From a virus (lineage: Duplodnaviria > Heunggongvirae > Uroviricota > Caudoviricetes): a stretch of DNA of 64,000 nt. The translations under genes were made by a program, and so were the position numbers. The notes beneath the pieces were generated by a model. The model ran no database searches and was not told the origin of the DNA. It was given only the letters and a program-made list of their open reading frames with translations. The DNA is taken from the IMG/VR virus record IMGVR_UViG_2585427757_000006; one strand, written 5' to 3'. Below are positions 19,234-55,825 of this stretch, one piece after another; position 1 is the stretch's first letter, and every line of letters begins with the position of its first letter.

Positions 19234-19551
19234 TGGAGAGTTCCCTTTGCGTATATAATTATCGTCTGAAACAACTTGTTTTCTTATATGTGATATAGCC
19301 TAAATGCCTACGGCTGCGGTGTAAAGGTTAAATGGTAGGTTGTGATTAACAATTGGCAAACATAGCTTGTATTTGTCTGTTGAAAAAAGTAACAATGACC
19401 TCTATATTACAAGTACGGTGATATGCCGTACACAATTTGATAATGCACACGTAATGGGCTATAGCCTTTTAAAGTAATTTTTGAGTCGAAAACTCAGTTT
19501 GAACAGAGGAGATTGATGGCCTTCCTACATCACGGCCATCAGGAGGAATAC

Positions 19552-19821
19552 ATGTCAGCACTAAAAAAGCAGCGCATCGATTTGAGATTAACCGATGACG
19601 ATAAAAGCATCATCGAGGAAGCTGCCGCAATGTCTAACCAGAGCATTACTCAGTTTATGGTTAGCAGTGCATCTGAACGTGCCGTGAAAGTTATAGAGCA
19701 ACACCGTAGACTAGTTCTGAATGAAGAATCCTGGAATCTGGTTATGGACGCTATAAGCAATCCTCCGGCACCGAACGACAAGCTGAAACGAGCTGCTGAT
19801 CGTCTGAAAAGCATGGAGTAG
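19552..19821 (+). CDS. DUF1778 (TacA-like) antitoxin
   Basis: ATG at 19552 preceded by AGGAGG; about 90 aa, sequence RIDLRLTDDDKSIIEEAAAMSNQSITQFMV typical of DUF1778 antitoxins of GNAT toxins; ORF track start 19513 is probably upstream of the real start. Confidence 0.7.
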   Translation: MSALKKQRIDLRLTDDDKSIIEEAAAMSNQSITQFMVSSASERAVKVIEQHRRLVLNEESWNLVMDAISNPPAPNDKLKRAADRLKSME

Positions 19822-19828
19822 TTTACTC

Positions 19829-20350
19829 GTGGATAATATAAAGATAGAAATTTTCTCTGGAGAGAAAGATTATGATTTGAATGGTTTTGATTGCGGTGAA
19901 GAATCACTAAATGCCTTTTTAACCAACCACTTAAAAAGGCAGCATGAGGGAAAAATTCTTCGCGCTTATGTGCTTTGCACGAAAGAAGGCAGACCAAAAG
20001 TGTTAGGGTATTACACTTTGTCAGGTAGCTGCTTTGAAAAGGAGTCCTTACCTTCAAGAAGCCAGCAAAAGAAGGTACCTTATCGGAATGTTCCAAGTGT
20101 TACTTTGGGTAGGCTGGCTTTGGACAAGTCCCTTCAAGGTCAAGGATTTGGCTCAATGCTTGTAACACATGCAATGCGCGTTGTGTACAATGCATCTCTT
20201 GCTGTAGGCATTCATGGACTTTTCGTTGAGGCGTTAAATGACAAAGCCAAGGCGTTTTATAAAAGTTTAGACTTTATCCAGCTGGTTGGTAACAACGAGC
20301 GTTCTTTGTTCTATCCTACAAAATCTATCGAAAAATTGTTCGAAGAATAA
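19829..20350 (+). CDS. GNAT-family acetyltransferase toxin (TacT/AtaT-like)
   Basis: 173-aa ORF 8 bp after antitoxin; GNAT motif region LALDKSLQGQGFGSML. Confidence 0.7.
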   Translation: MDNIKIEIFSGEKDYDLNGFDCGEESLNAFLTNHLKRQHEGKILRAYVLCTKEGRPKVLGYYTLSGSCFEKESLPSRSQQKKVPYRNVPSVTLGRLALDKSLQGQGFGSMLVTHAMRVVYNASLAVGIHGLFVEALNDKAKAFYKSLDFIQLVGNNERSLFYPTKSIEKLFEE

Positions 20351-20381: not shown

Positions 20382-20597
20382 TCACCAACCGCAAACTCTC
20401 TCTCCCATCGTATTGTGAAAAAGGATTTGGCGTTCGGTTTCTTCGGTCATCACATCATTATTGCTGATATAGATAGGCCCAGCTCCATCGCAGAACAATA
20501 CGCTGGCGGTTTGTGGTTTAATGACGCACCCACTTATCATACAACTCACGATGAACGGCAGAAGCATCTTTCTGACGTATTTTATTGCTCGTCTCAT
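20382..20597 (-). CDS. o-spanin candidate (lipoprotein overlapping i-spanin gene in another frame)
   Basis: 71-aa ORF with lipobox-like ISGC after hydrophobic stretch; overlaps 3' end of 20518-20769. Confidence 0.45.
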   Translation of the reverse strand: MRRAIKYVRKMLLPFIVSCMISGCVIKPQTASVLFCDGAGPIYISNNDVMTEETERQILFHNTMGERVCGW

Positions 20598-20769
20598 TCA
20601 CCACTTCCACTGTGCTTTGAAGTCGTTTTCTGTCTTCCTGTTTTGCCTTCTCTTCCATTGCTCGTCGCGCCGCATTCCCGCCCATCGTGTAAGCGCCGAC
20701 AAGAACGAAAAGAACGGCAGCCAGCGTAATCAAAGCAACTTTTAGCTTTGTCATCAGGCTGCCTAGCAT
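20518..20769 (-). CDS. i-spanin candidate (N-terminal TM plus coiled coil)
   Basis: 83-aa ORF; TM helix VALITLAAVLFVLVGAY then charged helical region. Confidence 0.5.
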   Translation of the reverse strand: MLGSLMTKLKVALITLAAVLFVLVGAYTMGGNAARRAMEEKAKQEDRKRLQSTVEVVNETSNKIRQKDASAVHRELYDKWVRH

Positions 20770-20770
20770 A

Positions 20771-21490
20771 TTAGACCATCCCTTTCTGGTGTTTTCTTAC
20801 CTGCGACCAGGCAATGAATCCGGCCACAACAATAGTGGCAATACCGAAGATGATGCGTACTGTATCCCCGCTAGAGATATGACCTTGTGCTTTATCCATA
20901 GCAGCGGAAACCTGCGGCATAACATCGGCCAGCTGCGCCAGACCAATACCTGCTGTAACAGTTGCGCCTGCGGTTTCTTTAGTTACAGGAACAGCCTTCA
21001 CGGTTTTCACCGGCTTAACAACGCCAGCTCGACGCAGACCTTCCTCAATAACTTCTGCCGCATACCAGGTGTTCAGCGTTTTTAGCGGACCTCGCCCATT
21101 CTCATGGCGAATGATTGCCTCAACCAAAGGTCGAAGAATGTCGTAATCATGCAGATCGATAATCATGTCTGCGGTTACACCAACGGCTTTAGACACCTCA
21201 TTAATGTAGGCGTCAGTATTGTTTTCATTCGGCGGTGCCCAACGTTCAATAACTTCACGAATGGTATCGATACTTGAGCCGTCTTTTGCGCGACGTTTGT
21301 CGTGGTAGGTAATTAGAGTCACCGCCAGCGCACGAATCCCCCAAACAGGGTCTTTAAACGTGCAAAAGCGCGGTTCGTCTGGATTCGCAACCAGACCTTG
21401 CCACGGTGATCCTTTATCAAGATTACCGGGGTTATTATTACGAATGCCTCTCGGAGTCTTCATCCTTGATCTCCTGTTATTGCAGTCCAC
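20771..21490 (-). CDS. endolysin-like protein with C-terminal transmembrane helix
   Basis: 239-aa ORF; N-terminal NNPGN motif region; C-terminal hydrophobic IIFGIATIVVAGFIAW; position between holin-like gene and spanins. Confidence 0.5.
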   Translation of the reverse strand: MDCNNRRSRMKTPRGIRNNNPGNLDKGSPWQGLVANPDEPRFCTFKDPVWGIRALAVTLITYHDKRRAKDGSSIDTIREVIERWAPPNENNTDAYINEVSKAVGVTADMIIDLHDYDILRPLVEAIIRHENGRGPLKTLNTWYAAEVIEEGLRRAGVVKPVKTVKAVPVTKETAGATVTAGIGLAQLADVMPQVSAAMDKAQGHISSGDTVRIIFGIATIVVAGFIAWSQVRKHQKGMV

Positions 21491-21812
21491 TTTTTACGCC
21501 ATACGCGGCTAACCCCAAAAGCAGTGCGGTAATAATGAACGACGTTATTTTAGAAACAATGCCGCCAAAGAACCCACTTGAGATGGAATCTAACCGGTTA
21601 AGGAGTTTGTCCAGATTGGAGTGTTGAATACTATGTTGCGCCGGGGTCATATCACCAAAGTAGGTTTTCAGCTGATCATTGACCTCCTGGCCAATTTCTT
21701 CACGTAGCTCTTTACCTAATTTGCCAACAACCTCCCGAGCAACGATCGCGGCAATACGCTCAACTTGCTCTGTTGTAACGCCCGCCATCTCGTTCGACAT
21801 GTTTTCCTCCAT
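21477..21812 (-). CDS. holin candidate
   Basis: 111-aa ORF with C-terminal TM segment ITSFIITALLLGLAAYGV; first gene of lysis block. Confidence 0.45.
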   Translation of the reverse strand: MEENMSNEMAGVTTEQVERIAAIVAREVVGKLGKELREEIGQEVNDQLKTYFGDMTPAQHSIQHSNLDKLLNRLDSISSGFFGGIVSKITSFIITALLLGLAAYGVKSGLQ

Positions 21813-21881
21813 GAAAAGTCAAATCGGGATGGCGGATTTATATCACATTTCACCCTTTTGTTGTAGGTGTGTACTTACCTA

Positions 21882-22115
21882 TCATTCAGCATTGCAACCG
21901 ATTGATGAGAAAGCACCTACTCCAACCCATCGCCAGTTATAGATGCTACCCGCTTTGTATAAGGTATAGTCGTTCACTTTTTTAACAGCATATATGGGTA
22001 TGACTGTCTCCTGTCCACCAATGATAGCTTCACCATAACATATAGGTGTCGGCAATTTCTGGCAGCCAGTAAGAGAGAGAACAACAGCTATTGTTAGAAA
22101 TAATCTTTTCATCAT
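21882..22115 (-). CDS. small lipoprotein (candidate receptor-blocking superinfection-exclusion protein)
   Basis: 77-aa ORF with signal peptide plus lipobox LTGC; located immediately downstream of tail-fibre genes. Confidence 0.5.
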   Translation of the reverse strand: MMKRLFLTIAVVLSLTGCQKLPTPICYGEAIIGGQETVIPIYAVKKVNDYTLYKAGSIYNWRWVGVGAFSSIGCNAE

Positions 22116-22122
22116 TTACTCA

Positions 22123-22731
22123 TCAGTTATACAGATTTCTATTTATTACCGGTACTCTGCCATTTACGCTAAAACTATGGCCGCCATTAAGTTGGTTTAC
22201 GAATATCGAGCTAACAGTATTTCCATATGCCGCATATCCATAAACCATTGTCATGGCTCCGCCCGGTACTGGAACAGCGAACACATTCGCATATGTTGGG
22301 ATTATCGCTGGAGGGTAATCAAAAACATGCCCTCCAGAGCTGTTCCACTCCGTATTATTAAGAAAGGTAAATGAAAGTGGGATATTTGCCGTATTATAGA
22401 TTTCCCCCCCTTGTGCATTGAAAAAACTCATGCCCCAAGTTTCTTTTTTGGCTATACCTTTCGAAAATACGTATATCGTGGCACTAGAGTCGCTACCCTG
22501 ACCTCCGAAACTGTAAATCACCTGGTTGTTACGCACTATTCTGTTGGCTATTAATGAAACAGCTTTCGAATAGGCAACAAAAATAATCGGTGAACGATCT
22601 GGAGATATTTTGGTGTTAAACTCTGTCCCGCCGGACAAAGAAACAACCTGCTTTCTCTGAAAAACGATAGGAGACAAAGAAGGAGACATCCAGACCTTCC
22701 CGTCAGATCGATATATCTTGCTTCCGTACAT
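22123..22731 (-). CDS. tail-fibre-associated hypothetical protein
   Basis: 202-aa ORF translationally coupled (TAATG) to upstream ORF; Gly/Ser/Asn-rich. Confidence 0.45.
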   Translation of the reverse strand: MYGSKIYRSDGKVWMSPSLSPIVFQRKQVVSLSGGTEFNTKISPDRSPIIFVAYSKAVSLIANRIVRNNQVIYSFGGQGSDSSATIYVFSKGIAKKETWGMSFFNAQGGEIYNTANIPLSFTFLNNTEWNSSGGHVFDYPPAIIPTYANVFAVPVPGGAMTMVYGYAAYGNTVSSIFVNQLNGGHSFSVNGRVPVINRNLYN

Positions 22732-22985
22732 TATTTTTGAAAAACCAATATGTTTAAATTACCACTAGCTCCAGACCACGAAATGGTATTTCCAGAAACC
22801 GTAAGACTTGTGTACTTTCCATTGGTTACGTCCATTATGTAATAGTCGATTCCCAATCCCGCCTCAACCTCATATGTTCTACTTCCTGAACCAGAGGGAG
22901 TAAAATAATCGAGGTAATAAACAGGGGCCAACGCATTGACCATCTCCTGTCTTGATGGCGACCAAACCTGTGCACCATAGCTCAT
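22731..22985 (-). CDS. tail-fibre-associated hypothetical protein
   Basis: 84-aa ORF downstream of side tail fibre. Confidence 0.4.
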   Translation of the reverse strand: MSYGAQVWSPSRQEMVNALAPVYYLDYFTPSGSGSRTYEVEAGLGIDYYIMDVTNGKYTSLTVSGNTISWSGASGNLNILVFQK

Positions 22986-23045: not shown

Positions 23046-26000
23046 TTATTCTTTAGGTGAATTTAACTTCGTTTCAAGCTCCTCAACCCTTTTGGTCAAT
23101 TGCTGAATATGATGAATGAGTGGTACAACCAAACGCTCATACATCACTCCTTCAGCGACCATACCATTTGAGGAAATATCTTCTGGAGAATCATTATTTG
23201 TTGGTTCACGCCAATGGACATATTGCGGGGCAATCTCACCAACCTCTTCAGCAATAAGGCCGTAATACCCCCAATCCTTTCGGTCACCTCGACAAATTGA
23301 ACGATACCAAACAGGTCTTAATGACAAAAGTTCATCAGCATATCGATCTTGTAATGTTTCAATATCCTTTTTATAGCGCCTTGAAGACGTTGAACGCCAA
23401 ACTGTATTGATACCTGGGTTTGGATCAATGTACATATTGGCACCGCTAGTAGTTGTGCCAATATCCCATATAGCAAACCCTCCACTACCGCCTGATTTGA
23501 CAACCAGTGTTTCAGCAACAATATCCAGGTTGCCACTATAGCCTGTCAGTGATGATCTGCTTGCATAGGAGCTTAGAAGGTTTGCTACCTCTGTTTTCGT
23601 GTAAGCATTAAGGTTAGCCGCAGTCAAAGTTATATCGGCAGAGCCATCAAACGCCACACCAGCAATTTTCCTTGCTGTCTGCAATTTTGTGGCGGTTGCG
23701 GCATTACCAGTAGTGTTCTGATTACCAGTTGTATTCACACCAGGGATTGAATCCTTAGCGGTATATACCTGCGCCCACGCTGACCATGCTGCACCTGTGT
23801 TATCTCTTCGTGAGCGAATGAAAACTGGCGCATGTGCACCGCTCGTACCACTCCAGCCAATAAGCAACTCGCCCTCACCAGCAGCACTCGCACCTTTCAT
23901 GTGCAATACGTTGCCATACGTGGTCGGGTAGCTATTGTTGTACGCCTCATACATTTGAATGCCAGCAGTGCCTTGAGTAGAGCCGCTTAACGCCGTAACT
24001 CGGCCACGAGATACCAATGTATTAATGTTGATATCGCCTGAACCATCAAACTTAACACCATTGATGTTTCTCGCTGTTTGCAACTTCGTAGCTGTTGAAG
24101 CATTACCGTTCAAACTACCATTTACGCCACCAGTCACATTTAGTCCATTACCAATTGATACAGCACCGCTGGTATTATTAATTGTAATCGGTCGCAAACC
24201 GTTCCATGAACCTAATGTGTCTCCTGATGCTGTTAGCAGGAAATATGTGTTCGCCCCATCATTACGGATAAAGAACCCATAGTTACCGTAAGCAATGCGG
24301 AAACCATTTGCATATTTTGAAACGATCTCACCAGAAGACGTTACCCCCCCAGATAATGTGCCACCTGAAAGCGGTAATGCTCCTACATCAGAAGCTGTTG
24401 GTTTGTTTCTGGTGTTATAAGAACGACGCCAGCCTGGCGCATAATCACTTCCATTGTACACATAAATAAATTCCGCATTATTAACACCACCATGACCCGA
24501 TGTTGTTGTCGTTGTAACACGAATAGTGTAATGGCTTGTTGCCTTATTACTAAACACCTCAATCACGGAACCAGATAGATCGATCCTACCGCAACCAGTG
24601 TCGTCTATATAATTATTGTTGGCGTAAGCCCATGAGCACCGTGCAATCCAATATTTGTTTGAAAATGCACCCTGATTATTTAGCCACGTTATAAACTGAG
24701 CAGTCGTAAATGCTGTTCCGTTACCACTATTTAACCATCCGGCGGCAGCGGTTGGTGCGTTTATATCAGCCGGCTGAGGCATAAATCCAGTCGTGTAAAC
24801 CTGCTCCCAACCACTTTCAAAACCATAGCCATCTCTTGAGGAACGGTAGAACAGACCACCATTTTTATAGTGAGCTTTAATTTGAAGCGTACGGCAACTA
24901 CCTACACCGGTATAAAAGTTGGCAAGAATATAACTAGCGCCTGCTCTAGTTACATTGTAAGCACCAGATTCAGCATTCCACGGCACGCCACCATCAGCAT
25001 CCGCATATGTATCCGTTGCCCTTCTGGCAAAAGCAGCCACATGCGCGGCGGTTAAAGTGATATCTTTGGAACCATCAAACTCAACACCAGAAACCCGTCT
25101 TGGCGTTTGCAGCTTTGTTGCTGTTAATGCATTACCGTTCAGACTTGCGGACAGTTTGGTTCCAATAACCAGTTCGCCGGTTGCGTTATCAATAGCAAAC
25201 GGTCTTAATGTATTCCAGCCACCATAAACATCACCTTGATTGGTAAGCAGCAGGTAAGTTTTAGCGCCATCATTACGCCATAATGCCCCATACTCCCCAC
25301 CTATCATTCGAATCTGATTACCACCACGCGCTACAATTTCGTCTGTGGCAAAAAGTTTTTTGCACGACAAGTTATCGTTAACGATTAACGAATGAGACTC
25401 ATAAAAACCACGCCCACTCTTAAAATCAAGGATAACGTCCGCCGCGATACATTCAATCGCCGGATTTGTTGCCCCAAACTTATAGGTCGTATCATTAACA
25501 ACGAGATCCGCACCAGGTGCGGATATTGACAGGCCATCTTCAATAAACGCAAAAACAGGGAAAGCAGCACCATCAACATAGAACACAGAGCGCAAATCAT
25601 CGCCCTTATTACTCATCATTATTGAGTGGATGGCTCGTTCATTGTTTTGATATTGCCAGAACATTCCATAAGCATAACGCCCCCTGTCAGTCCAGCCACC
25701 AGGCATAACAAATCCGTTAAACTCGCAGTTATTCATCGGATCGCCTGCGGTTCGCGTTGCCGTGGTGATAATGACCCTTGATGCCAGTTCGCTTACTGAG
25801 CCAGCAGAACGCATAACAACAACAGGGTAATATTTTCCAGATGTTGCACCTGCAGGAGCGTTAACCCGCACATAACGCATACCACGCTTATCAGCAAAGT
25901 CTGTTTTACTGACCGCGTTAATGTTGTTCAGGAAGCGTCCCTTATCGGGTATATCAGCGCCGTTCTGGTCTTTCTGCAGACGTTTCTCTGCATTGTCATA

Positions 26001-27467
26001 GGCTGATTTTACTGCCTTTGGCGTTGCCGCCAGCGTCTCAGACGTACTGTTGGTCGCACTGCTGAGCTGTACTATCCCCTTTTTCGTCGTACTTGCATCC
26101 TCAAGCGCCACGGCGGATGCAATATCCTCTGCCCGTTTTGCCGCTGTCTCGGCGCGCGTTGCCGCGGATTCCGCCGTACTTTTGCTCTGTGCTGCCGCCG
26201 TCGCACTGCCAGCTGCCTCTGTCGCCTTCGTGGATGCTGTCGTGGCGCTGCCCTTCGCTGCGGACGCTTGTCTGGTCGCCTCATCTTTTGAAGCAGACGC
26301 CGATGATGCCGATGACGCTGCCGAACTGGCGGACGATGCGGCTGCCGTTTTTGAGGATTCTGCACGGGTTTCCGACGCTTTCGCGTTCGTTTCGGATGTC
26401 TTCGCTGCGGAAGCAGACCTCGCTGCTGCGCTGGCCTGTTCAGTGGCTTCGCCAGCCTTCGTTGTGGCTGTTGAAGCAGACGATGCGGCACTTTCTGCCG
26501 ATTTTCCGGCGGCGGTGGCACTGGCTGAGGCCTGCCCGGCACTTGTTGACGCGGCACTTGCAGACGACGCAGCCGCTGTTTTTGAGCCTGCCGCAGCCGA
26601 GGCGCTCTGTCCCGCTGCCGTTTCAGAAGACCTGGCGTTCGTCTCGGACGTTTTTGCCGCCTTCGCGGAATTTCCTGCCGCCGTTGCCGAGGAAGCGGCA
26701 TTACTGGCGCTCGAGGCTGCGTTCGTTTCTGATGATTTCGCTGCCTCTTTTGAGGCCGCCGCATCCCGGGCTGAGGTGGCAGCTTCTGACGCCTTCGTGG
26801 TCGCGGTGGATGCAGAAGTGGCTGCAGATTTTTGTGACGCTGCAGCATTCGTTTCAGATTTTTTCGCAGCAGTTGCACTCGCACTTGCGGCACTTTGTGA
26901 GGATGCCGCAGCGGATGCACTTTGAGACGCTTGAGAGGCTTTTTCTCCAGCGGCATTGGCGCTTTTTGCTGCTGCGGCAGCACTGGCCGCCGCCTCACGA
27001 GCTTTGTCGCCAGCAGCATCAATCGCGTCAGTGTTATTTTTATACCACTCAACGTTTTCGTTGTGCTCGTTGACGATCTGCATTAGCGGCTTAACGGTCA
27101 CTTCTGTACCGTCTTCACGCTCGATTGTCACCTCATCCAGCGCAGTCAACCAACTGCGTATGGACTTGGAATCAGCCGACATACGCGACATTAGCGCAGT
27201 AAAACGCGCGCTAAACTGTGTTAAGTCGCCTTCATAGGTCGTAATGATTCGGCACGGAACCTCAGACTGAGTTTCGCCGGTATAAGGTTCTGAGAGAACA
27301 ATATTCGTATCGCTTATTACGCGCTTGATCTCATACAGCTTATTGTCGGGGCCAATGACGATCATCCCCGGCAACACACCATTAGCTGTTACGTTCCAGG
27401 CTGTCCCTGCCCCAACCAGAGTATTGCTACCATGTGTAAATGTGATAGTACCTTCCCTGTACCACAT
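23046..27467 (-). CDS. side tail fibre protein with Ala/Ser/Thr-rich repeat region, phage-fibre repeats and C-terminal S74-type intramolecular chaperone
   Basis: 1473-aa ORF; three copies of ...TATKLQTAR..G..FDGS.DI.. motif; C-terminal DIETLQDRY...GYYGLIAEEV...SSNGMVAEGVMYERL resembles chaperone-of-endosialidase domain. Confidence 0.8.
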   Translation of the reverse strand: MWYREGTITFTHGSNTLVGAGTAWNVTANGVLPGMIVIGPDNKLYEIKRVISDTNIVLSEPYTGETQSEVPCRIITTYEGDLTQFSARFTALMSRMSADSKSIRSWLTALDEVTIEREDGTEVTVKPLMQIVNEHNENVEWYKNNTDAIDAAGDKAREAAASAAAAAKSANAAGEKASQASQSASAAASSQSAASASATAAKKSETNAAASQKSAATSASTATTKASEAATSARDAAASKEAAKSSETNAASSASNAASSATAAGNSAKAAKTSETNARSSETAAGQSASAAAGSKTAAASSASAASTSAGQASASATAAGKSAESAASSASTATTKAGEATEQASAAARSASAAKTSETNAKASETRAESSKTAAASSASSAASSASSASASKDEATRQASAAKGSATTASTKATEAAGSATAAAQSKSTAESAATRAETAAKRAEDIASAVALEDASTTKKGIVQLSSATNSTSETLAATPKAVKSAYDNAEKRLQKDQNGADIPDKGRFLNNINAVSKTDFADKRGMRYVRVNAPAGATSGKYYPVVVMRSAGSVSELASRVIITTATRTAGDPMNNCEFNGFVMPGGWTDRGRYAYGMFWQYQNNERAIHSIMMSNKGDDLRSVFYVDGAAFPVFAFIEDGLSISAPGADLVVNDTTYKFGATNPAIECIAADVILDFKSGRGFYESHSLIVNDNLSCKKLFATDEIVARGGNQIRMIGGEYGALWRNDGAKTYLLLTNQGDVYGGWNTLRPFAIDNATGELVIGTKLSASLNGNALTATKLQTPRRVSGVEFDGSKDITLTAAHVAAFARRATDTYADADGGVPWNAESGAYNVTRAGASYILANFYTGVGSCRTLQIKAHYKNGGLFYRSSRDGYGFESGWEQVYTTGFMPQPADINAPTAAAGWLNSGNGTAFTTAQFITWLNNQGAFSNKYWIARCSWAYANNNYIDDTGCGRIDLSGSVIEVFSNKATSHYTIRVTTTTTSGHGGVNNAEFIYVYNGSDYAPGWRRSYNTRNKPTASDVGALPLSGGTLSGGVTSSGEIVSKYANGFRIAYGNYGFFIRNDGANTYFLLTASGDTLGSWNGLRPITINNTSGAVSIGNGLNVTGGVNGSLNGNASTATKLQTARNINGVKFDGSGDININTLVSRGRVTALSGSTQGTAGIQMYEAYNNSYPTTYGNVLHMKGASAAGEGELLIGWSGTSGAHAPVFIRSRRDNTGAAWSAWAQVYTAKDSIPGVNTTGNQNTTGNAATATKLQTARKIAGVAFDGSADITLTAANLNAYTKTEVANLLSSYASRSSLTGYSGNLDIVAETLVVKSGGSGGFAIWDIGTTTSGANMYIDPNPGINTVWRSTSSRRYKKDIETLQDRYADELLSLRPVWYRSICRGDRKDWGYYGLIAEEVGEIAPQYVHWREPTNNDSPEDISSNGMVAEGVMYERLVVPLIHHIQQLTKRVEELETKLNSPKE

Positions 27468-27560: not shown

Positions 27561-30500
27561 TCACAGACGGCCAATTCTTACTCGTAGGACGTTGTTATCG
27601 TCATAAACGTCAATCCGCTGACCATTTATAACCAATCGCCCATTGCCGCCGCTATTACCGTTGATCTCCAGCGTTCCATTTTTGCCGAACCGCCATCCAG
27701 ATCTACCGCTAACAAAATTGGTAGATTGCAGATCGCCTACTTTTGCATTGGTGATTGTGCCATCCTTGATATACGCTCCATTCATATAGGCGATACTGTT
27801 TTCGATAACAAATGGCGTTGTGATCTTCCCGTTAACAGAGTTGACCAAACCAAACCTGTCCGCCTGAACCAAAAACTGAGATAGCCCAGTGGTGTCAATA
27901 CCAAGCGCAATACCGGCAACATACTTCTGCCCTCCGCTCGTTGAAGTCTCCATTTTCAACGTCCACGCGGTTGACACTTTTTTGTTGGTATCAGCAATAG
28001 CTGTTGCCTGCTGTTGAATTGTCGCGGTATTTCCATTCACCTCTGCTTTCAGAGTATCGATTCGCCCACTCAGAGCATTATCTGCCTGCGTTCTCGCTTT
28101 CGTTTCAGTTGTGACCGCCGCGGAAATGTTGGCTGCCGTTTGAGACTCTAAGTTTGTGATTTGAGTCGCCAATGCAGCATCTTGCTCTGTACGCGTTTTC
28201 GTTTCGGTTGCTACAGCCGCTTTAATATCCTCTTTGTATTGAGAGGTCAGCTTGGTGATCTGAGACGACAACGCCGAGTCAGCATCAGTTCGAGCCTGCG
28301 TTTCAACTGCAACGGCCGCACTAATATCTTTCGCTGTCTGTGCTTTTAAACTTGAAACCTCTTTTGTTAAAGCGGTATCACCATCTGCACGAGCCGTTGT
28401 TTCTCTGGCAAGAGACGCCTTGAGATCATTAGCTTTTGCTGTAAGAGACGTAATCTGGGTAGACAATGCACTATCGGCATCAGTCCTTGCTTTTGTCTCT
28501 ACAGCAACCGCTGCGGCAATATCAGTTCCGGTTTGTGCTCGCAGGCTGTTAATTTCTCGTGAGAGCGCCTGGTCAGCACTTGCTCTGGCCTCCTGCTCCT
28601 GAGTGATGGCAGCGGATATATCACCGTCAACCTTTGACTGAAGCTGGTTTATTTGTTTGGCTAACGCAGAGTCCCCGCTTGCTCGGGCCTCCTGCTCACT
28701 ACGTATTGCAGCAGAAATATCATCATCAACCTTTGCCTGAAGTTGGGTGATCTGGCTTGCCAGAGCCGAATCTTCCGTTACTCGGGCTTCTTGCTCTTCC
28801 TTAATAGCTGCGACGATATCGTTGCTTACTTTCGACTCAAGCTGAGTGATCTGTGTCGTCAGAGCTTCATCGGCAGATGTACGAGCCTCCTGCTCTGTAC
28901 TAATCGCCGCGCTGATATCTCCTTCAAACTTAGATTGCAGCTGAGTGACACGCTTTGCCAACGCTTCATCGCCATCGGCACGAGCGGTGGACTCTTCCAG
29001 AATACTGGCCTTAATGTCTTCGCCAATTTCTACGCGAATTTCCTCAACCTTCGTGGCCATTGCAGACATATCATCAGCAAAGGTTTTCTGTGTTGTTGCG
29101 ATCTTCGCGTTATTGACCATCTGCTTGTGCTGGTCTTCATCTTGACGAAGAGCCAGGTCAATATTTGTTTTGGCCAAAGCCTCAATGTTCGTAGTCAGTT
29201 CTGCACTGGCACGATCGACCTCTGCAACCGTCTTTTTCATTTCTTCAACGGCAGCGGAGCTTTCCTCTACCGTTGACTGCAACACTTCCAGTTGTTTAGC
29301 GTTTGCAGCATCCCCTTCAACACGAGCCTCGCTTTCCTTAGCAATAAGAGCCGCCGCTTCGTCTCTTGCAGCCTTTATTGCCTCGACTGTATTAGCGAGA
29401 GCTTTATCGTGTTCAGATACGGTGTTTTCGATTTCAACAATTGCAGCATCAGTAGCATCAATTTTTTCAAACGCTTCATTGACCTTGTCGATCGTTGCCG
29501 AAACCTCACCTTTAAGCTCGGTTTGTGCGTTCTCCAAAGCATCGCTACGCTCGTTGAATTTTATTTCAAAACCCGCGAGGTTATCGCTGAACTGCTTATC
29601 TAATTCAGCTATATCTTCCTTAACGTCGTTTACCGACCCCTCCAAAGATTCGACGCTCTGGTTGATATGCTCATTTAACTCGTCAACTGCTTCTTGAGAG
29701 ACTTTGCTGTTGATGTCCTCAAGCAGAGCCTGACCAAGCTCGGAAGATGTAATTTTGCCAGTCAGGAACGACAGTACATCGCGAGTTGTCGCCTCTGTTC
29801 CCAAGTTTGAGTTCGGAGGACTTAACATACCTCGCTTGTTCGATGCTCGAACCCAGTAATACCACGTTTCGCTATCCCCAAGACCAGCATGTGTAAAGGT
29901 GGTGCTTGCAGACTCTGCGATCAGTTTCGCCGTATCCAGATTGTTGGTCTGGGATGCGTAAACATTAATGTGATCAAGGTCTACCGAATCTGGATTAACC
30001 CAATTCAGTATCACATTACGATAGTCTCCAACGGCCGTTAATGACGTTGGGGCATCTGGCGGTGTCATTGTGCCCAACACCTGATAAACGGTACTGATAA
30101 TCTCTGTTTTTTTACCGTTGAATGAAACCGCATACAGCTGGAAGTCGTAGCGTCCATTCTCCGCGACATTAACGATTTCGTATTGCTCTTCGGTTACACG
30201 CGCCGATTGCCAGTTCGATACATTGTTTTCATCAGAACGTCGCCAACTGATCCAATACTCTGGAGATTTCCCTTCCCATGTTGCAGTCAGTTTTACTGAC
30301 AGGTTGCCCGGGCTTGAGAGGTAAGTCCCTTCAGTGATTTGCAAATTAGACGGCTTGGAGTAAGTCGGGTCCAATACCGTCGTATTCTGCGGGATAAGCG
30401 TTGCACCATTGTCGATCGCCTCATATTTAGACGGATTGTTTTCAACAGCGGTGATGTCAAAGCTACCCGACGTTTCCCCCTGAGCGATGTTAACGATGCG

Positions 30501-32291
30501 AACGCGCATAGGTTCGAGATCTGGTTCTGTAATTGTCCAGACACCGTTCAAAACAGGCGTTTCCGCTGACGACAGGGCTTTTGAAAACGTAACCTTTGTT
30601 ATGTTTTCGCCAGTTTCAAGAACATCGCGCTCAACGATTTTGCCTTCCTGATTCAATATCCGAATAAAGCTGCCGCTTTTAGCTAACGACACAGGCGCAT
30701 CGAGAGTGATGCTGTTTTTGGTAAACTCCACAATTCGACCGGAGTTACGTTTACCTGCACGATATTTGTTCTGAATCAGAACGGTTTCACCAGGCATCAG
30801 AAATGAGGCGTCTAAGCCGGCAGTAAATGTAATTACATCCGACTCCATTCTGGCGGTATACAAAAGCCACAAACCAACTCGGTGAGCCTGGCCTCGGCTT
30901 GTACATCCAAATGCTACGACTTCTGTTTTACGCTCACCATAACGGCGCATTGCGTCCTGATCTTCAACGTATTCGATGTTTTGCTTATAACCGTCCTCCT
31001 TGTTGTTGTAGGTTACGAGCGCAACGGATGGGCGATCTTTACGCGCAGAACCTTTATAGGTAAACAGTCCATCTTTGACGTTGGAGTTGGTAAACATCAT
31101 TACCGGATCTGATGGGCTATCCTGCATGATGTTAACCATGCCACCAGCCCAAAACACCATGCCGCGGAATGCACCGGCAATATCCTGAATTAATCGGTAT
31201 GCGTCTTGTCGACTGGTGATCTGCGTATTGATTGCAAAGCGTTTCTCTTTACCCCCAAAGCCATCATCGACCTCTTCGTCACAATATCGACCAATCTGGT
31301 AGAGCTGGCCGAGGTCAATCATGGATTCCGACACAAATTGCCCAAGACCATACCGAGTATTGGTAAGCAAATCGTAGAGAATCCACGCAGGGTTTGAAGA
31401 AGACAACAGCTTAAAAGTACCGTCCCATACGCCGACATAAGTATTGGTGTATTCGTTGTAGTTTGACGGTACTCGGATTTTGATACCGCGCACCAAATAC
31501 GAACGGGAAGGCATTGTGCTACCAAACTGCTCTGAATTGACCTTCAAGCCAACAAGAGCAGAGTTAGGGTAGTTCATTGGCGTGTCGACAATCTCACCGA
31601 TGGAATCAACCCATGTGTCGTTGTAGAGGTACTGGCTACTATTATCATCTGTAAGACGAATCACCCTAACCTTGTATGCACGACCAGGCTTAGGCAGTTT
31701 CAGCTCATAGCTACGGTAATACACGCCGGTTTTCTTTGCCGTTAGCGTGATATCAACGCTTTTCTCACCTTCTGCCACTACATCAGAAAATGTTGCGTCT
31801 GCGTTGGCGATCTGGAATTTGTACTTCACCGTAGTGTCATTTGTATCGCCAGAGCTTTTATCAACGCTACGTAAAGAGGGGAATTTCATGATGACACGAA
31901 CGCGATCAGCTTCATCGTTATCGATTGAAACCGTAACGTCGTGGGTTTTTTTAAGGTGAATATTTACGGACTTAGGCGTTTCAACAAAATCAAAACCAGC
32001 CATTGGCGTCTGGTCTTGTGAGCCGTCACGAAAATCCCATGTAATACCGCTGAAGTTGGAAGAGCCATCTTCATTCAAGATCGGTAAATCGTCGATGAAG
32101 ATCGACTTTGCGCCATTTACCAGGCCACCGATAACCCCCTCGCCAAGAAGGTCGAGGATGGCTGCCATAGCACGAGAATTGACAGTATCATCAGCTTCAA
32201 CCGGGGTACGGCTGGAGCTTTTACTTTTCTTGCCACCAGCACCGGCAATAAGAAGCGGTAATTTTTTCTTCTTGAACTGTTCCATGTCCAA
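27561..32291 (-). CDS. gpJ-like host specificity / central tail fibre protein with C-terminal coiled-coil tandem repeats
   Basis: 1576-aa ORF; lambda-J-like N-terminus and position ahead of I/K/L/M homologues; about 12 tandem ~30-aa repeats (EQEAR..AD.AL..QI..L.SKV..DI.AAI). Confidence 0.8.
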   Translation of the reverse strand: MDMEQFKKKKLPLLIAGAGGKKSKSSSRTPVEADDTVNSRAMAAILDLLGEGVIGGLVNGAKSIFIDDLPILNEDGSSNFSGITWDFRDGSQDQTPMAGFDFVETPKSVNIHLKKTHDVTVSIDNDEADRVRVIMKFPSLRSVDKSSGDTNDTTVKYKFQIANADATFSDVVAEGEKSVDITLTAKKTGVYYRSYELKLPKPGRAYKVRVIRLTDDNSSQYLYNDTWVDSIGEIVDTPMNYPNSALVGLKVNSEQFGSTMPSRSYLVRGIKIRVPSNYNEYTNTYVGVWDGTFKLLSSSNPAWILYDLLTNTRYGLGQFVSESMIDLGQLYQIGRYCDEEVDDGFGGKEKRFAINTQITSRQDAYRLIQDIAGAFRGMVFWAGGMVNIMQDSPSDPVMMFTNSNVKDGLFTYKGSARKDRPSVALVTYNNKEDGYKQNIEYVEDQDAMRRYGERKTEVVAFGCTSRGQAHRVGLWLLYTARMESDVITFTAGLDASFLMPGETVLIQNKYRAGKRNSGRIVEFTKNSITLDAPVSLAKSGSFIRILNQEGKIVERDVLETGENITKVTFSKALSSAETPVLNGVWTITEPDLEPMRVRIVNIAQGETSGSFDITAVENNPSKYEAIDNGATLIPQNTTVLDPTYSKPSNLQITEGTYLSSPGNLSVKLTATWEGKSPEYWISWRRSDENNVSNWQSARVTEEQYEIVNVAENGRYDFQLYAVSFNGKKTEIISTVYQVLGTMTPPDAPTSLTAVGDYRNVILNWVNPDSVDLDHINVYASQTNNLDTAKLIAESASTTFTHAGLGDSETWYYWVRASNKRGMLSPPNSNLGTEATTRDVLSFLTGKITSSELGQALLEDINSKVSQEAVDELNEHINQSVESLEGSVNDVKEDIAELDKQFSDNLAGFEIKFNERSDALENAQTELKGEVSATIDKVNEAFEKIDATDAAIVEIENTVSEHDKALANTVEAIKAARDEAAALIAKESEARVEGDAANAKQLEVLQSTVEESSAAVEEMKKTVAEVDRASAELTTNIEALAKTNIDLALRQDEDQHKQMVNNAKIATTQKTFADDMSAMATKVEEIRVEIGEDIKASILEESTARADGDEALAKRVTQLQSKFEGDISAAISTEQEARTSADEALTTQITQLESKVSNDIVAAIKEEQEARVTEDSALASQITQLQAKVDDDISAAIRSEQEARASGDSALAKQINQLQSKVDGDISAAITQEQEARASADQALSREINSLRAQTGTDIAAAVAVETKARTDADSALSTQITSLTAKANDLKASLARETTARADGDTALTKEVSSLKAQTAKDISAAVAVETQARTDADSALSSQITKLTSQYKEDIKAAVATETKTRTEQDAALATQITNLESQTAANISAAVTTETKARTQADNALSGRIDTLKAEVNGNTATIQQQATAIADTNKKVSTAWTLKMETSTSGGQKYVAGIALGIDTTGLSQFLVQADRFGLVNSVNGKITTPFVIENSIAYMNGAYIKDGTITNAKVGDLQSTNFVSGRSGWRFGKNGTLEINGNSGGNGRLVINGQRIDVYDDNNVLRVRIGRL

Positions 32292-55334: not shown

Positions 55335-55402
55335 TCACGCTATCAATTAGGGAGACAAAGATGAAGTCTCCCATACTGTTCACTTTCTGTTCTAAAACTA
55401 TC

Positions 55403-55825
55403 ATGAAATACTCGCTTCTCCCTCTACTAACGTTACCAGTGTTGATGCTTACCGCGTGCCAATCACGCCCAATATCAATCCATGACGCCAAACCAGCACC
55501 GCAGGCCAAAGTGTTCAAGTATCAAAGCGCAGCGCCAGCTACGTTGGTGGTAATGAGAGACACAGGTTTTGTAGGAGCTGGATGTGATGCTTCCATTTTC
55601 ATCAACGGCGAAACTATCGCAAAACTGGCTACAGGCGAAAAAGCGACTTTCCATTTAAATGCCGGAGAATTAATTGTGGGTGCATCTCTTGAAGGTGCAG
55701 GTTTATGTGCTCTAAACCCCGCTCGTCAAGAGCGAGAAACGACTCTGAAGAATGGAGACACAAAAGCATTCAGGGTGTTCACCAGCAATTCTGGTGACAT
55801 CGACATTCTGCCAACAACTCTGTGA
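55403..55825 (+). CDS. lipoprotein
   Basis: Signal peptide plus lipobox MKYSLLPLLTLPVLMLTACQ (internal Met of track ORF 55361-55825). Confidence 0.5.
   Translation: MKYSLLPLLTLPVLMLTACQSRPISIHDAKPAPQAKVFKYQSAAPATLVVMRDTGFVGAGCDASIFINGETIAKLATGEKATFHLNAGELIVGASLEGAGLCALNPARQERETTLKNGDTKAFRVFTSNSGDIDILPTTL

Follow-up and report, generated by a model that had tools for sequence, protein, structure and literature searches.

Cor proteins of phages phi80, N15, HK022, mEp167, and T1 are lipoproteins of about 77 aa with a common cysteine pattern, and their gene is the last of a gp22-gp23-cor cassette in the tail gene cluster. According to Uc-Mass 2004, as cited in 10.64898/2026.03.26.714494, Cor inactivates FhuA functions. 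The three-gene locus lies downstream of the tail genes in T1, HK022, N15, ES18, and phi80, and this extended cassette accompanies FhuA use in those phages and in BASEL phages; within the BASEL collection, possession of the full cassette is confined to phages that target FhuA, and no function is assigned to its two upstream proteins (PMC13164509). The BASEL paper itself describes the genes downstream of gpJ as a receptor-binding locus with cognate exclusion genes, whose alleles are matched to receptor specificity (PMC8594841).

The mechanism has been solved for T5 Llp (PDB structures 8A60, with FhuA, and 7QJF), which binds FhuA periplasmically and shuts its extracellular loops allosterically, with closure of EL7 and EL8 (PMC9586334). 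Cor and Llp have a common fold, disulfide included, at about 20% identity (PMC9586334; 10.64898/2026.03.26.714494; PMC13164509), and a published AF3 model of KanT1 Cor with FhuA has an ipTM of 0.84 (PMC13164509). Llp differs from Cor in being a separate family by sequence and an early gene of a lytic phage, without gp22- or gp23-like companions. Rtp45 of phage Rtp (PDB structure 9RPS) follows the same logic as Cor: in this small siphophage, the gene for an exclusion protein lies next to the receptor-binding locus (PMC12685063). Unlike Cor, this lipoprotein acts on LptDE, with LptD as target, by a steric mechanism, and no sequence relation was detected between Rtp45 and the Cor protein analyzed here.

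That protein is encoded in a 64,000-nt stretch of DNA (the window), which contains genes for ParA and a GNAT-type toxin-antitoxin pair, replication genes, a tRNA cluster, and a lambda-like tail module. We assign the window to an SSU5-like phage-plasmid of E. coli, because its lysis, toxin-antitoxin, and partition region has 93-98% identity to Escherichia phages Cyrano, CMS-2020a, and PhiR41_1 and 82% to Salmonella phage SSU5, and because many E. coli plasmids with sizes of about 110 kb, such as pECAZ162_2 (NZ_CP019013), match the 1.3 kb around cor at 99.9% identity. The orthologue of cor in SSU5, gp25, is called "Cor-like superinfection exclusion protein" in the deposited GenBank record (JQ965645 / NC_018843). 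In the literature searched, no report ties SSU5-type phage-plasmids to cor or to superinfection exclusion. Our main reading is that the gene is the cor of an SSU5-like phage-plasmid and that its product most likely binds the periplasmic face of FhuA, excluding FhuA-dependent phages; we give this a probability of roughly 0.72. The features on which the argument draws are as follows.

21882..22115 (-): cor, encoding a 77-aa prolipoprotein (ATG-started ORF; NF047972, PHROG 1119, RefSeq name)
22065..22115 (-): Cor signal peptide, residues 1-17 (MMKRLFLTIAVVLSLTG), with predicted signal peptidase II cleavage (rule-based lipobox test)
22062..22073 (-): Cor lipobox L15-T16-G17-C18, read straight from the sequence
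21885..22064 (-): mature Cor domain, residues 18-77, with a predicted small beta-barrel-like fold and conserved Cys26 and Cys74
22123..22731 (-): middle gene of the cor cassette, phi80/N15 gp23-like (188 aa from the start at 22689; PHROG 425, E=3.4e-48; 74% identity to SSU5 gp24)
22731..22985 (-): first gene of the cor cassette, phi80/N15 gp22-like, 84 aa (PHROG 557, E=2.4e-24; 68% identity to SSU5 gp23)
23046..27467 (-): side tail fibre gene, 1473 aa (BLAST; annotations of the SSU5 and Cyrano homologues)
27561..32291 (-): J-like central tail tip protein, listed with 1576 aa, translation probably beginning at the Met two codons in (lambda_TipJ, E=4e-159)
21477..21812 (-): holin, the first lysis gene directly downstream of cor (holin annotation in Cyrano and SSU5)
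20771..21490 (-): endolysin, longest ORF (PHROG 873/1026/1275 for the endolysin-Rz-Rz1 set)
20518..20769 (-): Rz (same PHROG set)
20382..20597 (-): Rz1 lipoprotein, overlapping Rz (lipobox; same PHROG set)

A 77-aa ORF with an LTGC lipobox had been picked out in the sequence-only reading, and this is borne out: the ORF begins with ATG, its stop codon occupies 21882..21884 (-), and L-T-G-C is found at residues 15-18 of the product (MMKRLFLTIAVVLSLTGCQKLPTPICYGEAIIGGQETVIPIYAVKKVNDYTLYKAGSIYNWRWVGVGAFSSIGCNAE). RefSeq places the start one codon later, at 22112, for a protein of 76 aa. The N terminus, with two basic residues and an 11-residue hydrophobic core ahead of the lipobox, satisfies a PROSITE-PS51257-like rule (K or R within the first seven residues, six uncharged residues, and then a lipobox) with the cysteine at position 18, so that the lipoprotein signal claimed for the ORF is present by this rule. 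Cleavage between MMKRLFLTIAVVLSLTG and C would leave Cys18 (codon at 22062..22064) as the predicted acylated N terminus of the mature protein, with Gln19, not Asp, at the +2 position. Lipoproteins without Asp at +2 are sorted by Lol to the outer membrane, and Gln19 thus implies that Cor would take this route. The lipobox by itself is weak evidence for cor. Of the 301 ORFs of 50 aa or more in the six frames of the window, 6 satisfied the same rule, two of these being antisense junk, and the reality of cor therefore rests on homology and conservation. Pfam has no Cor family, and its sole match to the protein was LPAM_1 over residues 2-19, at 16.6 bits and so under the cut-off of 20.

Homology makes the gene a clear member, by sequence, of the known Cor family of phage exclusion lipoproteins. 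The NCBIfam equivalog NF047972 (lamb_exclu_cor, "phage exclusion lipoprotein Cor") matched residues 2-75 with 80.1 bits against a cut-off of 31, and PHROG 1119, "Cor superinfection exclusion protein," matched residues 2-76 with E=7.8e-30. RefSeq has the identical gene under the name "cor: phage exclusion lipoprotein Cor" (WP_021520500.1). A tblastn search with Cor found 193 phage records, all with at least 80% query coverage. Among these were phi80 cor (41.6% identity, E=2e-14, 96% of the length), SSU5 gp25 (59%), the HK and mEp lambdoid cor genes, ES18 gp32, and exclusion genes of Drexlerviridae and Dhillonvirus, including those of JLBYU37 and JLBYU60, which are FhuA-dependent phages (PMC10373560). 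The earlier proposal of a Cor/Llp-type exclusion lipoprotein is thus supported at the family level, with a strong match on the Cor side. None of the three proteins of the cassette had a match in PADLOC.

An exhaustive HMMER search of 1.84 billion cluster representatives returned only 20 Cor relatives at E<=0.001, and the family is, on these matches, small and centred on enterobacterial phages. A 1087-aa protein (P0006, E=4e-24 versus Cor) was rejected as a homologue, being a tandem repeat that piles up weak matches. In an alignment of 21 Cor members, at least 90% of sequences have the lipobox cysteine and Cys26, all have I41 and G56, and F69 is nearly invariant; the C-terminal cysteine (C74 in the window) recurs in SSU5, phi80, and most homologues. 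The length of 77 aa fits a family of about 75-80 aa, as do the two further conserved cysteines, which may form a disulfide (a putative Cys26-Cys74 bond). The window protein and the phi80, N15, HK022, mEp167, and T1 group also have the motifs GG, IY..K, Y-x-AG, and NWRWV in common. Between cor and the SSU5/Salmonella alleles, synonymous sites are saturated and dN is 0.33-0.35, and close E. coli and E. albertii alleles gave dN/dS values of 0.10-0.45; we read cor as being under purifying selection. None of this is new: the family has already been described, as have the place where its genes usually lie and the way it probably works, and this exact protein already carries the name Cor in RefSeq. 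The cor finding has little weight as a discovery and some practical value, as it bears on the choice of therapeutic phages.

The predicted fold of the mature Cor domain is closest to that of T5 Llp, with about 13-15% identity in structural alignments. A word-indexed homologue search recovered mostly fragments, with no more than 4 relatives for Cor and 5 for the gp23-like protein, and the structure predictions were therefore built on shallow alignments. The AF2 model of the 188-aa gp23-like protein had a mean pLDDT of 31.8, was unusable, and was not taken to a fold search. With phmmer, Cor found no match among PDB sequences. A profile of the Cor alignment compared with the same sequences gave T5 Llp (8A60 chain B) as its best match (E=0.011), and in an hhalign comparison of Cor with Llp the signal peptide, the lipobox cysteine, and the second cysteine line up. 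Both results agree with the published likeness of Cor and Llp.

This likeness suggests how the protein may act. As we infer it from what is known of Cor and Llp, Cor would be lipidated at Cys18 and placed in the inner leaflet of the outer membrane, where its disulfide-stabilised domain of roughly 60 residues would bind the periplasmic face of FhuA, the TonB-dependent ferrichrome transporter. The extracellular loops of Cor-bound FhuA would be altered allosterically into a conformation useless to phage receptor-binding proteins, and other FhuA functions would be blocked. Neither the same phage nor others that depend on FhuA (such as T1, T5, and phi80) would then be able to superinfect a carrier cell, and progeny would be spared adsorption to debris; impaired FhuA function is the likely cost to the carrier. 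"Receptor masking," as the activity had been termed, is probably not the mechanism in the literal sense of masking at the cell surface, since Llp works from the periplasmic face of FhuA (PMC9586334). A promoter scan found 2 promoter-like sites versus 5.0 in shuffled sequence, i.e., fewer, and is uninformative on lysogenic expression; a terminator scan saw none after cor.

The position of cor needs one correction. It had been placed directly downstream of the tail-fibre genes, and two co-oriented genes intervene, encoding proteins of 84 aa and of 188 or 202 aa; in the latter, the longest ORF gives 202 aa, and the start at 22689 used in RefSeq and SSU5 gives 188 aa. The gene closes a portable three-gene cassette in the order PHROG 557, PHROG 425, cor, the same as gp22-gp23-cor in phi80 and as in SSU5. 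In SSU5, too, this module is flanked by the fibre genes and the holin; SSU5 differs in having an extra tail-fibre adhesin gene (gp22) ahead of the cassette and a different distal part of the fibre; the window cor is the E. coli allele. Compared with phi80, N15, HK022, mEp167, and T1, the window cassette comes after a side tail fibre gene, not after J, and borders on the lysis genes, and it sits on a phage-plasmid of roughly 110 kb and not on an integrated lambdoid prophage or a lytic T1-like phage. It also has no intergenic gap ahead of cor: the gene starts 7 nt past the stop of the gp23-like gene, versus 111 nt in phi80.

Because the full three-gene cassette is present, FhuA is, by analogy with the phages described above, the most likely target of Cor here, and the cassette as a whole has been reported only in FhuA users (PMC13164509). 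Should Cor instead act by the same principle on another outer membrane target, candidates would be BtuB, another TonB-dependent transporter, or the ligand of this phage's own tip. The protein has only about 42% identity to phi80 Cor, and between the window and SSU5 it diverges faster than its neighbours (59% identity, versus 68% for the gp22-like, 74% for the gp23-like, and 79% for the J protein); the latter may also be explained by the different host FhuA, that of Salmonella versus E. coli. Cor-like proteins have been reported in BtuB-targeting phages (PMC13164509), and the closest Cor relatives outside the phage-plasmids are in Stx-type podophages without the full cassette. Against these points, all functionally characterised Cor proteins act on FhuA, and homologues of the gp23-like protein occur in Drexlerviridae, including the BASEL phage FritzSarasin and the JLBYU phages. 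We consider a target other than FhuA unlikely.

The two genes ahead of cor bear on what the functional unit is. By hydropathy, both of their products lack a signal peptide, a lipobox, and any hydrophobic stretch of transmembrane grade, a result that fits soluble virion proteins better than envelope proteins. We suggest that both probably sit in the virion, where they would bind the receptor that Cor targets or act as adaptors to it; the BASEL analysis likewise treats the locus downstream of J as one for receptor binding (PMC8594841). They have alternatively been proposed to be exclusion machinery (PMC13164509), in which case all three proteins would work as one envelope complex. The order and orientation of the three genes are kept in unrelated phages (PMC13164509), as such a complex would lead one to expect, and the 7-nt spacing ahead of cor suggests co-translation. 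However, the lack of export and membrane signals leaves an envelope localisation unsupported, cor alone is enough for exclusion in phi80, N15, and mEp167 in the cited literature, and in T5-like and Stx-type phages Cor is found unaccompanied by them (PMC13164509). A three-protein exclusion complex is accordingly, in our estimate, quite improbable. [quoted passage not shown]"

On its other side, cor adjoins the holin, endolysin, and Rz/Rz1 genes, the 69-nt spacer between holin and cor (21813..21881) being part of the conserved lysis module. A small, predicted outer membrane lipoprotein in this position recalls Rz1, and cor might be taken for a lysis-related gene, o-spanin-like or accessory. However, a complete Rz/Rz1 pair is already there (PHROG 1026 and 1275; 20382..20769), so the o-spanin role is filled; the cor ORF has no spanin match and a strong Cor match, it does not belong to the Rz1 type, and Cyrano and PhiR41_1 carry the same lysis cassette without cor. 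The family assignments effectively refute an o-spanin identity, and we regard any lysis role as extremely unlikely.

Within the SSU5-like group, the distribution of the cassette is patchy. We searched 5426 complete E. coli genomes, of which 238 have an SSU5-type holin and endolysin; the cor cassette was present in 74 of these 238 (roughly 31%), every copy on a plasmid. Phage-plasmids of Enterobacter, Citrobacter, Kluyvera, and Salmonella carry Cor homologues at about 59% identity, annotated "lipoprotein." In Cyrano (L002 15503..19730), the fibre gene is followed directly by the holin, with no genes between, and in PhiR41_1 (L005 8402..9154), two unrelated small genes (94 and 92 aa) occupy the cassette position; neither the Cyrano nor the PhiR41_1 region has homologues of the three cassette proteins. 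Thus, the cor cassette is optional in this group of phage-plasmids. Similarity between the window and Cyrano stops at 21883, within the cor stop codon, and restarts inside the fibre gene, which makes the distal fibre and the cassette one exchangeable segment.

The tail tip does not follow this exchange. The J-like protein, whose match to the NCBIfam model lambda_TipJ (E=4e-159) lies under the curated cut-off, is 97.5% identical over its full length to that of cassette-less Cyrano, and relatives of its C-terminal 249 aa occur in 1869 phage records, with many different hosts. Variation in J is thus not coupled to the presence of cor. As an indicator of receptor type, the C-terminal domain of J was rejected, being too widespread and identical in cassette-less relatives. 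Since Cyrano has nearly the same J, the cassette might be an optional plug-in, in which the two soluble upstream proteins would be detachable FhuA adaptors on an unchanged J tip. A phage otherwise dependent on LPS binding would thereby gain a protein receptor, and Cor would supply the corresponding immunity. We offer this tentatively, as a possibility that we rate well below even. The presence or absence of the cassette on otherwise near-identical phage-plasmids provides a clean natural system for the function of the two cor-adjacent genes.

Outside the phage-plasmids, the closest Cor relative, at 58% identity, is in vB_EcoP_phi367, a short-tailed Stx-type podophage (Sepvirinae). Its cor (L010 3486..3713) comes immediately behind the genes for tail fibre and adhesin, and the only gp22-like ORF is a distant one about 3 kb downstream of cor (L010 6954..7184); the fetched region of this phage has no gp23-like gene. 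In the window, the C terminus of the fibre (23046..27467) is unlike those of Cyrano and SSU5, and it is not followed by a separate adhesin gene. The C-terminal segment (…SSRRYKKDIETL…) may resemble a peptidase S74-like domain, an intramolecular chaperone. At 26050..27073, within the fibre gene, the two strands together have three long ORFs (291-326 aa), each out of frame or antisense, which overlap the Ala/Ser-rich repeat region and look like an artefact of composition rather than genes.

Elsewhere in the window, an antitoxin gene and a GNAT acetyltransferase toxin gene (PHROG 10531 and 1758) lie at 19513..20350 (+), between the ParA gene and the lysis cassette, with a KacT-type annotation in Cyrano. 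Four tRNA genes (Ser-TGA, Thr-TGT, Tyr-GTA, and Asn-GTT) are located at 7162..7719 (-); the annotated cluster of Cyrano has Ser, Thr, and Asn only. Two further lipoproteins are predicted, one of 88 aa at 12190..12456 (-) (MSKNKLILTGALLSLFALVGC...), in PHROG 2320 (function unknown), and one of 154 aa at 55361..55825 (+), in PHROG 890, "lipoprotein."
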